DNA from: Candidatus Dojkabacteria bacterium
GTDB lineage: Bacteria; Patescibacteriota; Dojkabacteria; SC72; JAFGCJ01
DNA: 64,000 bases
Direction: 5' to 3'
Assembly (NCBI GenBank): GCA_016932785.1
Contig: JAFGCJ010000002.1
Span: 465,777 to 529,776 of the forward strand
Shown: positions 1,486 through 32,556 of the stretch, piece after piece
Position numbering within the stretch: the stretch's first letter is position 1
How the letters are laid out: each line of letters opens with the position of its first letter
The notes under the pieces: generated by a model
What the model was told of the DNA's origin: nothing
What the model saw: only the letters and a program-made list of their open reading frames with translations
Database searches by the model: none
Translations under genes and position numbers: made by a program

Positions 1486-1510
1486 TAAAAAAGCTCCCTG
1501 TCGGGAGCTC
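1486..1510 (-). terminator. intrinsic terminator inside the thrS leader (attenuator segments 3:4)
   Basis: Minus-strand RNA GAGCUCCC-GACA-GGGAGCUU followed by a U6 run, 85 nt upstream of the thrS ATG. Confidence 0.8.
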
Positions 1511-1551
1511 AAATTACAAAGGAAAATCTAGCACATACCCCGACAGGCCAC

Positions 1552-1608
1552 TTACGTGGTCGTTGTCGTGGATGAAACTAGATTTTGTCCGAATACATAT
1601 TTATACAT
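1552..1608 (-). CDS. putative thrS leader peptide MYKYVFGQNLVSSTTTTT (18 aa)
   Basis: ATG TAT AAA TAT GTA TTC GGA CAA AAT CTA GTT TCA TCC ACG ACA ACG ACC ACG TAA read on the minus strand. Five consecutive Thr codons end at the stop. The ORF overlaps the 5' arms of the leader hairpin and lies below the 60-aa cutoff of the ORF track. Confidence 0.6.
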   Translation of the reverse strand: MYKYVFGQNLVSSTTTTT

Positions 1609-1618
1609 ATCTATTTAC

Positions 1619-1627
1619 ATTATACCA
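1619..1627 (-). promoter_or_regulatory. extended -10 element TGgTATAAT for the thrS leader transcript
   Basis: Minus strand reads TGGTATAAT, ending 10 nt before the leader-peptide ATG. No good -35 at 17-nt spacing. Read-through from the HD gene is an alternative source of the transcript. Confidence 0.4.
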
Positions 1628-5463: not shown

Positions 5464-7353
5464 CTATTTATACAGCTTAAAATCCTTTGTCAGCTCGGTC
5501 ACTATCTCACTATTTCCGCACAGTGCTACTCCCCAATACTCCATTTTTTCATGTTTACTATTTTCAATTGCAGCATTGAGATCATCGTCAGTTCTTGTCG
5601 TAAACATCTCCGAGGGATAATCCACCATAATAACACTCTTATCTCTAGCCTCTTCTACAACCTTTTTTATATCTGCTTTCGAAGCTTTAAGTATTATTAC
5701 CGGATATCTAGAGATTCCTCGGTGAATATTTCCCTCGGAATCAACATAGGCATTCCGCCCCATTATGTCTCCACCCCTACGTCCAACAGCAACATCCAGA
5801 TGACCGACCACATTCATCGCTACACCGATATCAAGATCATCTGCAACCACTACTGTAATCTTCTGATCATCATAAGGATATCTCTCCTCCGGTTTCTTTT
5901 CGACATCTTCTTTCTTTTTCATTATAGGGAACCACAACACATCATCAATATTCTCCGTTTCAGTTAGCATCATTGCTATCCGTTCAATCCCAGGCCCAAG
6001 ACCTGTCGTAGGAGGCATACCAAATTCCATAGCCTCAAGGAAATCCATATCCATCGGATGTGCATCTTCCTCTCCCATCTCTTTCCTTCTTTGCTGTTCC
6101 TCAAACCTCTCACGAAGTTCAACCGGATCATTAAGCTCAGTCCAATTATCACCAGTCTCTATCCCTCCAATATAAAGCTCAAATCTTTCCACATACTTAT
6201 CACTGCCGGGAATTCTTTTGCAAAGAGGCGATATTTCAACAGGATGACCGTAAACAATTGTAGGCTGGATCAATTCAGGACCTACGACGGCTTCCATATA
6301 TACTACAAGAGCCTCGCCAACAGAGGGCTGTGGCTCAAGCTTTGCTTTCGTTAGGATCTCATTTGCTTCATCCTTTGTCATTTTGTCAAAGTCAAGACCA
6401 GTTTCCTCTCTTACAAGATCAACCATCATAACCCTCCTCCACTCCTGATCAAAATTCACTTTCTCTCCCTTGATTGTATATTCAAACCGTTTAAATACAT
6501 TCTCACAGATATACCTATACATCTCTTCCGTAAGGTCCATATTGTATTCATAGTTCTTATAGGCACTCATGGTTTCAAGCATGGAGAATTCAGGATTGTG
6601 GGCCCTATCAACACCCTCATTTCTGAATAGTCGCCCTATGGTAAAAACATTCTCAAAACCAGCAACAACTGCACGTTTCAAATAGAGCTCATTTGCAATA
6701 GCAAGATATACATCTACATCTAGGGCATTAATGTGAGTAATGAATGGCTCCGCATTAGTACCCCCATAGGTCGGTTGAAGGATAGGACAATCAACCTCAA
6801 TGAAATCTCGATCCCAAAGGAATTCACGAATTGCCTTTTCTATTCCTGTACGTTTAAGTATTCTATCTCTAGCTTCTTCATTAAGAAGAAAATCCAGATA
6901 TCTTCTGCGATATCGGGACTCAACATCCTTGAGACCTTTATTTTTTTCTGGCAAAGGTCTAACTGATTTAGTCAGAATCGAAATTTTCTCAGCCTCCACA
7001 GAAACCTCTCCGGTTTTACTTTTTACCACGGTTCCTGTCGCATCGATGAAATCTCCGACATCATAGAGCTTTAACTGATCATTAATACCCTCCAGATCTT
7101 CTTTTCTCAGCATAACCTGTATATCACCGGATTCATCACGTAATTTGATAAAACCTAGTTTCCCAAAATCTCTCCAGAACATGATTCTTCCAGCAACAGT
7201 AACCTTTTTACCCTGGTATTTAGAGTAATCACCGGTAATATCGCCGGCCATATCTGTCCGGCCAGACTTTGTAGCATACGGATCAATTCCGAGCTTACGA
7301 AAAGCTTCAGCTTTCTGAATTCTTTCTTCCATTATTTTTTCCAGCATTGCCAT
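5464..7353 (-). CDS. lysS: lysine--tRNA ligase (class II) fused to a C-terminal DUF2000/PTH2-like domain
   Basis: 629-aa ORF with an OB-fold N-domain, 'FRNEGVDRAHNPEFSMLE' (motif 2) and 'GLGPGIERIAMML' (motif 3), then a linker and an extra 132-aa domain (5467-5862). Confidence 0.9.
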   Translation of the reverse strand: MAMLEKIMEERIQKAEAFRKLGIDPYATKSGRTDMAGDITGDYSKYQGKKVTVAGRIMFWRDFGKLGFIKLRDESGDIQVMLRKEDLEGINDQLKLYDVGDFIDATGTVVKSKTGEVSVEAEKISILTKSVRPLPEKNKGLKDVESRYRRRYLDFLLNEEARDRILKRTGIEKAIREFLWDRDFIEVDCPILQPTYGGTNAEPFITHINALDVDVYLAIANELYLKRAVVAGFENVFTIGRLFRNEGVDRAHNPEFSMLETMSAYKNYEYNMDLTEEMYRYICENVFKRFEYTIKGEKVNFDQEWRRVMMVDLVREETGLDFDKMTKDEANEILTKAKLEPQPSVGEALVVYMEAVVGPELIQPTIVYGHPVEISPLCKRIPGSDKYVERFELYIGGIETGDNWTELNDPVELRERFEEQQRRKEMGEEDAHPMDMDFLEAMEFGMPPTTGLGPGIERIAMMLTETENIDDVLWFPIMKKKEDVEKKPEERYPYDDQKITVVVADDLDIGVAMNVVGHLDVAVGRRGGDIMGRNAYVDSEGNIHRGISRYPVIILKASKADIKKVVEEARDKSVIMVDYPSEMFTTRTDDDLNAAIENSKHEKMEYWGVALCGNSEIVTELTKDFKLYK

Positions 7354-7380: not shown

Positions 7381-7431
7381 AAAAAGCCCCTCACCAATAT
7401 TTACCAATTTTAGTAAACATTTGTGAAGGGC
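7381..7431 (-). terminator. intrinsic terminator in the lysS leader
   Basis: Minus-strand RNA GCCCUUCAC...GUGAGGGGC (9-bp stem, extended by AUGUUUAC/GUAAAUAU) followed by UUUUU; it ends 27 nt upstream of the lysS ATG. Confidence 0.7.
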
Positions 7432-7660
7432 GAAAATAGATTTCCACGAAATTCACACCAGTAACGCACCGGTGCAAAAACCACCTTCATTCCCCAAAAT
7501 CATTACTGATTCAGGCTTCTAGGCTGCCGCCATCGATATGACAGCGATAGTCTTGGTTCTGTGTCGGGAACTCCCGTCCGATTCTACTTGCCAGGAACGT
7601 CATTTCGAAAAAAGGCTTTCTTTCGGAGGCTCAGGGAACTTTGTAAAAATCTAATTTCCT
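7381..7660 (-). promoter_or_regulatory. structured lysS leader, candidate T-box-like or other riboswitch attenuator
   Basis: A roughly 300-nt untranslated region before lysS ends in a terminator. 'AAUGAAGGUGGU' (plus 7480-7491) resembles the T-box core, and its UGAAGG can pair with CCUUCA of the terminator 5' arm. The class is not resolved. Confidence 0.4.
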
Positions 7661-7726
7661 AATTTCACCATGCTTAAGAATCTCTTGTTTTGACTTTCAC
7701 CTATCCCTTCATCGCCTAGTATTTTT

Positions 7727-13556: not shown

Positions 13557-13667
13557 TATAAAAATAAAAAGTTAAATTGAGATGAATTTCTTCTACTAAT
13601 ACAAGCTTAACCTATATCGGAATTATATTCAATAAAGAAGACGTATGTGCCCTTATCCATAGAGAAT

Positions 13668-13740
13668 TGCCGCTACGGGGAATCGAACCCCGGTTCTAGG
13701 ATTGAGAATCCTATGTCCTGGTCCACTAGACGATAGCGGC
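13668..13740 (-). tRNA. tRNA-Glu (anticodon CUC)
   Basis: Cloverleaf by hand: acceptor GCCGCUA/UAGCGGC, D-arm GUCU..GGAC ('UCGUCUAGUGGACCAGGACA', like E. coli tRNA-Glu), anticodon stem UAGGA/UCCUA with loop UUCUCAA, T-arm CGGGG-UUCGAUU-CCCCG; no encoded CCA. Confidence 0.9.
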
Positions 13741-13751
13741 ACACCTCATGT

Positions 13752-32108: not shown

Positions 32109-32556
32109 GGGACTAAGCAGCTCATAAGCCGGATTCTGTTTCAGATGACTATCTCTCTTCCCGCTAACCCCTAGCACAAAATTTCGTATAAACATATCTT
32201 ATGCCACAAGTTAGCGGGACCCATAATCGCACTAGACTTTACAAGCAAAGCGCGAAATAGGATGCAGCAGTATATTTGCCTTGCTCCGAACGGGGGTTGC
32301 AATGCATCTGACCATTACTGATCAGACCGGTGGTCTCTTACACCACCATTTCACCCTCACCCCGCTAACTTACAGTACGCAGCGCATATTGCAAGCAAGC
32401 GGGGCGGTTTACTTTCTGTTGCCCTTTTATCCGAAAGATCACTCCCTCCCTGCTCTCGCAGGCGTCCACCCCGATTAAGTCGGGGCCACTTGGAGTCCGG
32501 ACTTTCCTCATAGCATTCAAAAAGAAAGCCATGCAGTCATCTGAGATACTTAGTCC
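32108..32556 (-). ncRNA. rnpB: RNase P RNA (bacterial type A-like)
   Basis: Minus strand carries CR-I GAGGAAAGUCCGGACUCC (plus 32492-32509) and ACAGAAUCCGGCUUAUGAG (plus 32121-32139). P1 helix is GGACUAAG (5', 32549-32556) with CUUAGUCC (3', 32110-32117). The ends are approximate. Confidence 0.85.

Follow-up and report, generated by a model that had tools for sequence, protein, structure and literature searches.

The 64,000-nucleotide (nt) stretch of Candidatus Dojkabacteria DNA analyzed here (contig JAFGCJ010000002.1, positions 465,777 to 529,776; hereafter the window) begins with a gene for an archaeal-type threonyl-tRNA synthetase (ThrRS; thrS) on the minus strand, whose ATG lies at 1401, and an HD-domain gene upstream of it stops at 1643. 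The region between the two genes contains a short open reading frame (ORF) with a run of Thr codons, an intrinsic terminator, and several segments that can pair in alternative ways, and it is very probably a ribosome-mediated (leader-peptide) transcription attenuator tuned to the supply of charged tRNA-Thr. By reading the sequence of 1300-1800 directly, all of the elements listed in Table 1 were found on the minus strand. A preliminary description of this DNA had reported the leader ORF, its Thr run, hairpin 1:2, a 9-bp complementarity between segments 2 and 3, and a terminator followed by six U residues, and each of these proved accurate to the base on rereading.

Table 1. Elements of the thrS leader and the regulated gene in the window
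Feature	Position	Strand	Basis and remarks
Extended -10, TGGTATAAT	1627-1619	-	Read from sequence; ends 10 nt before leader ATG
Leader ORF, 18 codons plus TAA, encoding MYKYVFGQNLVSSTTTTT	1608-1552	-	Translation
Segment 1, five consecutive Thr codons (ACG ACA ACG ACC ACG)	1569-1555	-	Translation
Hairpin 1:2	1590-1521	-	Minimum-energy folds, -27.6 kcal/mol
Segment 2, CCUGUCGGGG	1547-1538	-	Pairs with Thr codons (1:2) or with segment 3 (antiterminator)
Segment 3, UCCCGACAGG	1506-1497	-	Complementary to segment 2
Intrinsic terminator (3:4), GAGCUCCC-GACA-GGGAGCUU	1510-1491	-	Terminator scans, -14.1 kcal/mol
Segment 5, CAAUAUCAAGGCUC	1466-1453	-	Constrained folds; can pair with 1496-1483 after the antiterminator forms
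Archaeal-type threonyl-tRNA synthetase (thrS), 446 aa	1401-61	-	Pfam PF00587 and PF03129, NCBIfam NF003068

The leader ORF lies 150 nt upstream of thrS, with its ATG at 1608-1606, 17 further codons, and the TAA at 1554-1552. In hairpin 1:2, the outer stem is formed by GGA..AAAUCUAG paired with CUAGAUUU..UCC and the inner stem by CGACA paired with UGUCG, whereas the apical part reads CCAC-GUAA-GUGG; the leader stop codon is therefore found within the apical GUAA tetraloop, and the Thr codons are paired with segment 2. Judging from the folds, this hairpin would act as an anti-antiterminator and could possibly serve as a pause hairpin in addition. Segment 2 begins 5 nt past the leader stop codon, and segment 3 spans most of the 5' arm of the terminator, its loop, and the first two bases of its 3' arm. 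The perfect complementarity between CCUGUCGGG (1547-1539) and CCCGACAGG (1505-1497) on the minus strand gives a 2:3 antiterminator pairing of 9-10 bp. The terminator has a GC-rich stem of 8 bp and a run of six U residues at 1492-1487, the first two of which are the end of the stem, and it ranks among the best of the first 20 kb in a terminator scan. Hence, a short 5' ORF, a cluster of codons cognate to the downstream synthetase, an intrinsic terminator, and mutually exclusive 2:3 and 1:2 pairings are all present in front of thrS. The Thr leader is the sole short ORF in the 64-kb window that combines a single-amino-acid run with a following terminator, and a search of the same window for further leader-peptide attenuators found none. 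ACG is the rarest Thr codon in the window genes (14%), yet it accounts for three of the five Thr codons in this leader and for 56% of those across 52 related leaders (see below), a preference that agrees with sensing of a minor tRNA as well as with the CGACG:CGUCG pairing.

To identify related loci, a 38-homologue alignment was used to search metagenomes, which yielded 67 loci; 55 of them hold the 5' end of the gene together with upstream DNA and, with the window, make up 56 bacterial loci containing 52 distinct leader sequences. A Thr-cluster ORF of 10-23 codons is located upstream of the orthologous ThrRS gene at all 56 loci. ORFs were then counted that start with ATG, are 10-30 codons long, contain a run of three or more Thr codons, and lie within 400 nt upstream. 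Such an ORF was present at 47 loci, and the same count made for any of the remaining 19 amino acids gave 0-3 loci. Shuffled sequence gave 0.4 loci, and random 400-nt pieces cut from these loci were positive in 5% of cases. Since the other nine loci hold interrupted clusters (such as TTPTT, TSTLT, TRTLT, TMTT, TTST, and TTAT) followed by the same terminator, the element can be regarded as present at each of the 56 loci. Most leader ORFs end roughly 110-150 nt upstream of the ThrRS start, and Thr runs reach up to eight codons. Four DPANN archaeal homologue loci, which served as negative controls, contained no Thr leader ORF. The element was also detected in named assemblies, namely a second Dojkabacteria genome (L073), a Saccharimonadia genome (L076), and a 'Patescibacteria group' genome (L077). 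The leader peptides of these three end in ATATLKA (L073, 1300-1355) or TATATF (L076, 205-262, and L077, 425-482), with Thr alternating with Ala, and this alternation may reflect pairing constraints only.

Outside the Thr cluster, leader peptides are unrelated across lineages (for example, MYKYVFGQNLVSSTTTTT, MVKSIAKFATITTTTTTDSAVG, and MNLIRIPNNQTTTTTKA), and the third positions of the leader Thr codons vary (ACG, ACA, ACC, or ACU) while Thr is kept. The conserved position and length of the ORF might also suggest that it encodes a functional micropeptide and that the RNA structures are independent of its translation; however, the lack of any shared peptide sequence except the Thr cluster, together with conservation that resides in RNA pairing, makes such a function extremely improbable.

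The pairing potential of the leaders was then compared across lineages. Terminators in the relatives were assessed by script, by eye, and by motif: nearly all leaders share a core of CUCCCG-loop-CGGGAG followed by a U-run, with CCCCC/GGGGG in some lineages, and in those leaders where the script measured the distance, the terminator begins 22-41 nt past the leader stop. The bases just after the stop (in one lineage, the last ORF codons instead) are complementary to the 5' arm and loop of the terminator, and the 2:3 pairs differ by lineage, including CCGUCGGG/CCCGACGG, CCGUUGGG/CCCAACGG, CCAUCGGG/CCCGAUGG, and UGCUGG/CCAGCA, besides the CCUGUCGGG/CCCGACAGG pair of the window. Consensus of per-sequence minimum-energy folds on an alignment of 28 sequences (A3) did not recover 1:2 and 2:3, because repeated ACG codons shift the register and columns are inconsistent between subgroups, and RNAalifold on the relatives' alignment returned the terminator and a long-range helix only. 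Therefore, alignment-free duplex energies and a hand-defined structure were used. In alignment-free duplexes, cognate 2:3 pairs across 42 leaders were more stable than non-cognate ones (-15.75 vs -12.13 kcal/mol; permutation p<1e-4), and the same was observed for the outer stem of 1:2 (-10.55 vs -5.97 kcal/mol), the sequence of which is wholly different between lineages. With the hand-defined structure scored on A3, 92.7% of cells were paired, compared with 39-53% when partners were slid, and seven pairs had changed on both sides vs 2.0 +/- 1.2 in shuffles (0/500). Compensatory changes were found within 2:3, and a 4:5 helix of the relatives is backed by pair counts. The antiterminator, the outer stem of 1:2, and further helices thus covary.

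These comparisons also bear on the possibility that the hairpin in front of thrS serves as a constitutive terminator or an insulator, or forms the end of a small RNA, with an incidental ORF and a separate downstream promoter for thrS. A terminated RNA of ~125 nt could indeed have a function in trans, like that reported for rnTrpL (PMC6614838). However, the upstream neighbor genes of the related loci are non-syntenic and in ~40% of cases are encoded on the opposite strand; the terminator therefore belongs to the thrS leader and does not serve these variable, often divergent genes. In addition, no convincing promoter was found in 1490-1401, where the sole hexamer match overlaps the thrS start codon, and both the Thr-only enrichment and a covarying antiterminator that overlaps the terminator would be left unexplained. 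We consider this alternative highly unlikely.

We further examined how the leader may fold with and without a ribosome. The 142-nt leader of the window folds at -47.4 kcal/mol, compared with -29.4 +/- 3.8 kcal/mol for shuffled sequences (z = -4.8, 0/200 as good), into the long hairpin 1590-1521 and the terminator hairpin 1510-1491. The energy of the antiterminator is -20.9 to -24.3 kcal/mol vs -27.6 kcal/mol for 1:2 and -14.1 kcal/mol for the terminator. A ribosome was modeled by blocking all sequence up to a point 13 nt beyond the A-site codon's first base. For the window, the predicted minimum-energy fold consists of 1:2 and the terminator when there is no ribosome, contains the antiterminator when the A site is on Thr1 to Thr3, and contains the terminator when the A site is on Thr5 or the stop codon. 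In these footprint-constrained folds, a ribosome at the stop would mask segment 2, whereas one on the Thr codons would leave it free. Among the 52 leaders folded, the terminator was predicted in 51 without a ribosome and in all 52 with a ribosome at the stop, and with a ribosome at Thr1 the antiterminator became the minimum-energy fold in 22, the window included. When a 28-nt footprint alone was blocked, the outer stem of 1:2 stayed intact and the terminator was kept in some relatives, and blocking everything 5' of the ribosome altered the terminator outcome in only part of them; this persistence of the terminator is a limit of equilibrium folding. The leaders that retain the terminator (30 of 52) would require a kinetic switch, with 2:3 already formed by the time segment 4 is synthesized. 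The E. coli trp leader likewise relies on a kinetic switch.

The promoter context of the leaders is also informative. In ~35 of the 56 loci, the leader ATG follows the end of TGnTATAAT by 6-7 nt. The transcript should therefore begin at or beside the AUG, and the leader ORF is predicted to be leaderless in most relatives. In the window, the 10-nt gap leads to a predicted 5' untranslated region of 3-4 nt, with transcription predicted from the -10 to start at about 1612-1611; no -35 was found in the window sequence at proper spacing to TGGTATAAT. Because a Shine-Dalgarno (SD)-like sequence occurs within 20 nt of the start in only 7 of 39 genes (the long ORFs of the window), the lack of an SD at both the leader ORF and thrS is normal here, and most translation in this genome appears to start without an SD or on leaderless transcripts. 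Several window genes carry a TATAAT-like hexamer just 5' of their ATG.

Taken together, the sequence elements, the conservation and covariation they show, and the way folding depends on ribosome position are consistent with the following mechanism, for which we infer translation of the leader ORF, coupling of transcription and translation, and a response to threonine. Transcription would begin a few bases 5' of the leader AUG, giving a leaderless or nearly leaderless transcript, and a ribosome would translate the 18-codon ORF while RNA polymerase proceeds. When Thr-tRNA is plentiful, the ribosome would reach the UAA and cover about six bases of segment 2, allowing 3:4 to pair, and this hairpin with its U-tract would release a transcript of ~120-125 nt. 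If the ORF is not translated, 1:2 would sequester segment 2 and the terminator would also form. When Thr-tRNA is scarce, a ribosome stalled on the first Thr codons would break 1:2 and leave segment 2 free to form a 10-bp antiterminator with segment 3, which would prevent the terminator and permit read-through into thrS. The preliminary description had proposed the same trp/pheST-like logic and had remarked that the ORF may be translated from a nearly leaderless transcript. The logic is now supported by conservation at all 56 loci, covariation of 2:3, and position-dependent folding: folds of 1486-1627 with and without a constraint on the ORF switch between terminator and antiterminator as it had predicted, and the upstream regions of related thrS genes hold the Thr leader ORFs and covarying alternative pairings that it had suggested looking for. 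The remark on leaderless translation agrees with the short spacing seen in ~35 relatives and with the scarcity of SD-like sequences.

Several points weigh against this reading. The permutation tests ignore relatedness, and far fewer than 52 lineages, perhaps ten, are independent. In the window, the gap between the -10 and the ATG is 10 nt and not 6-7 nt, and the start site is a predicted one. The Thr run adjoins the stop codon, so that stalls at Thr4 or Thr5 would partly mask segment 2, and clean antitermination in the window model arises from the first three Thr codons only. The terminator stays the minimum-energy fold in 30 of the 52 leaders with a ribosome on the Thr codons, and the Thr codons of some relatives number only two or three and are interspersed (ATAT in L073; TATAT in L076 and L077). 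More generally, the case is built from sequence and predicted folding, from which function is deduced, and we know of no demonstration of transcription-translation coupling in Patescibacteria.

Members of Patescibacteria (a group also called Candidate Phyla Radiation, CPR) have tiny genomes with few recognizable regulators, most are devoid of amino-acid biosynthesis, and their regulation is largely unexplored. If the mechanism is true, the leader-peptide attenuator of ThrRS would provide a clear case of control by a cis-regulatory RNA in the CPR, and two things would follow for these bacteria: translation would be coupled to transcription, and initiation on leaderless transcripts would be quick enough to set the pace of RNA polymerase. 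Making more synthetase when Thr-tRNA is low would be one response remaining to an organism unable to make threonine. Saccharimonadia include cultivated and genetically tractable members. Considering that a Saccharimonadia genome (L076) carries the element, the prediction should be testable. The order of -10 box, ATG, Thr codon run, CCGUCGGG, CUCCCG..CGGGAG, and U-run may also serve as a simple signature with which annotators could spot more attenuators in CPR genomes.

We also compared the region with known RNA families. An Rfam cmscan of 1300-1800 with E up to 10 gave three chance-level matches to unrelated families only. The covariance model of the enterobacterial Thr operon leader (RF00506) had no match at 1300-1800, nor did the T-box model (RF00230), which with the same settings detects 7423-7721 of the window and the related loci L005, L067, and L074. 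An E. coli-type thrS translational operator was rejected by inspection of the folds, with loops of 4 nt (GUAA and GACA) and no SD before thrS.

Control by an untranslated switch that senses tRNA or protein is common for synthetase genes, and one could imagine that the Thr codons act as T-box-like specifiers or that ThrRS binds its own leader in a manner similar to the E. coli thrS operator, particularly as a divergent T-box precedes lysS in the same genome (described below) and a Thr-specifier-like T-box exists in some relatives. In the latter, sub-threshold full-length T-boxes (36-59 bits) are located directly 5' of the Thr leader (L074, 1087-1276; L005, 189-377; L067, 293-496), and a further one in the same sub-lineage (L075) was judged by eye; their specifier is probably the Thr codon ACC. 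However, these T-boxes are separate upstream modules with their own terminator, distinct from the second terminator belonging to the Thr leader, and such an arrangement would, if true, place two sensors of tRNA charging in series before thrS. Moreover, besides the lack of a T-box or any other Rfam family at 1300-1800 even at the permissive threshold, the 4-nt loops do not resemble 7-nt anticodon-like loops. An ATG at a leaderless distance from the -10 always precedes the Thr codons in the same frame. The ORF length is kept at 10-23 codons, its stop codon has a constant placement relative to segment 2, and third codon positions are variable while Thr is kept. An untranslated switch of this kind is therefore very improbable for the thrS leader, and we retain the leader-peptide attenuator. 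T-boxes share its physiological logic, with tRNA charging linked to antitermination at a synthetase gene, but a T-box binds uncharged tRNA directly and needs no translation, and the thrS leader of the window is without T-box features.

Attenuators of this type are well known from E. coli pheM-pheST and from the trp, his, and thr operon leaders, in which a run of cognate codons is combined with 1:2/2:3/3:4 pairing and an intrinsic terminator. The thrS leader shares with them the short ORF with cognate codons, the four segments, and the terminator before the gene, and, like pheM-pheST, it would regulate the gene for the cognate aminoacyl-tRNA synthetase. In contrast, no sequence or structure homology to the enterobacterial leaders was found (the Thr_leader model has no match), and the present element differs from them in its leaderless or nearly leaderless ORF without an SD, its Patescibacteria host, its archaeal-type ThrRS target, and the addition of 4:5, 5:6, and a closing helix in relatives of the window element.

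Leader-peptide attenuators have been predicted for trpS and leuS of Streptomyces, with pheST cited as a parallel (PMC1262725), and for hisS paralogues of Bacillus (PMC2965389). The preliminary description knew of no Thr leader peptide on thrS, a statement that calls for some qualification: in the passages covered of a study of Streptomyces lividans, leader peptides are described for alaS, leuS, trpS, and thrS (alaL, leuL, trpL, and thrL), and thrL (MKRVRPFLETTPGFVPAR) is a leaderless ORF with two Thr codons and no clear Rho-independent terminator that was proposed to be an attenuator (PMC8079986). Both thrL and the present leader are leaderless short ORFs with Thr codons upstream of thrS; however, their sequences are unrelated, and in the present family Thr runs reach eight codons, the terminator is strong, and the antiterminator covaries, whereas the passages covered on thrL contain no covariation analysis (PMC8079986). 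Similarly, leaderless leader peptides have been proposed for synthetase genes in Deinococcus deserti (14 genes/leaders), as in the example of cysS, where the short ORF's AUG is also the transcription start (PMC4007540, in the passages covered). These leaders also consist of a cognate-rich short ORF that starts at or near the transcript start upstream of a synthetase gene, but they come from another phylum, and the passages covered describe no alternative structures (PMC4007540). Full-text literature searches returned no description of such an element in Patescibacteria. Thus, the mechanism is classical and other synthetase genes are already known or predicted to have leader peptides, whereas the Patescibacteria case is newly described and well supported.

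Many leaders of the relatives carry AACAAAACUCC 3' of the terminator, which can pair with the 3' arm of the terminator and the U-tract (4:5) or, via ACUCC, with the thrS SD GGAGU (5:6). The long-range helix recovered by RNAalifold is a closing helix that joins the end of the leader ORF (last codons plus stop) to UAGGNC just past segment 5, ~90 nt downstream, and its compensatory pairs include GGCUUA/UAAGCC, GACCUA/UAGGUC, GCUCUA/UAGAGC, and GAUCUGA/UCAGAUC; in A3, it occupies columns 51-56 with 147-152, and the 4:5 and anti-SD:SD region occupies columns 109-143. With the ORF blocked, four leaders (L018, L038, L065, and L008) fold to a three-way junction of the closing helix, 2:3, and 4:5, in which the SD is less paired. 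These folds suggest a combined transcriptional and translational control of thrS in the lineages that have the closing helix and 5:6. In the window, 4:5 is predicted by constrained minimum-energy folds (1483-1496 with 1453-1466), and segment 5 would accordingly be expected to pair with the terminator 3' arm and U-tract; both a closing helix and sequestration of an SD were looked for in the window and neither was found, thrS having no SD.

It is possible that the window element belongs to a Patescibacteria-wide class of regulatory RNAs whose members use a leaderless Thr leader peptide to operate a six-segment relay in place of a four-segment one, although we advance this tentatively and would give it somewhat less than an even chance. 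In the OFF state of many relatives, 1:2 and the terminator 3:4 would coexist with a hairpin 5:6 in which ACUCC sequesters GGAGU, and in the ON state the three-way junction of the closing helix, 2:3, and 4:5 would free the thrS SD. A single stalled ribosome might in this way control both transcription and translation of thrS.

The regulated gene had been taken for thrS in the preliminary description. Its identity as a ThrRS gene was upheld, but the product is not that of a standard bacterial thrS, since this archaeal-type protein comprises the catalytic and anticodon-binding domains only: the class II core (PF00587) and the HGTP anticodon-binding domain (PF03129) both score above their cut-offs. 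The best NCBIfam matches of the 61-1401 product are the ThrRS models NF003068 (373 bits) and TIGR00418, and neither score reaches its full-length cut-off, as the protein is missing the N-terminal third. Given that the NF003068 alignment is restricted to model positions 154-568 of 613, the protein is without the N-terminal editing and TGS part. The protein is 100% identical to one of a Candidatus Dojkabacteria assembly, and this match, along with the bacterial class A RNase P RNA of the window, places the organism in Patescibacteria. In a scan of genome contigs with this single protein, the only matches were four DPANN archaeal loci (36-41% identity), and Patescibacteria gave none because the peptide patterns used were too specific. 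Together with the missing editing domain, these matches hint at an archaeal-type origin or inter-domain transfer. A strong 13-bp hairpin (GAGTGAACGCCAC…GTGGCGTTCACT) is located at 4-35, ~25 nt past the thrS stop codon, and is probably the terminator that ends the thrS transcript, in which case thrS would be monocistronic. The scanned U-tract of this hairpin is on the plus strand, and its minus-strand side runs beyond the edge of the window.

The divergent T-box upstream of lysS (7423-7721, minus strand) matches RF00230 with 30 bits vs a gathering score of 93, but the match is full-length (E = 5.9e-5 in a 451-nt search) and contains AGAGA, GGUGAAA, AGUA, and GGUGGU boxes, and a terminator-like GAGGGGCUUUUUGUUG follows it. 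Its specifier is probably AAA. Thus, within one genome, a T-box serves one synthetase gene and a leader peptide serves another. The lysS gene (5464-7353, minus strand) encodes a class II lysyl-tRNA synthetase (NF001756, 569 bits) with an unusual C-terminal fusion to DUF2000 (residues 497-629). Other RNA genes observed in the window include a bacterial class A RNase P RNA (32110-32552, minus strand, 162 bits) and a tRNA-Glu(CUC) (13667-13741, minus strand).

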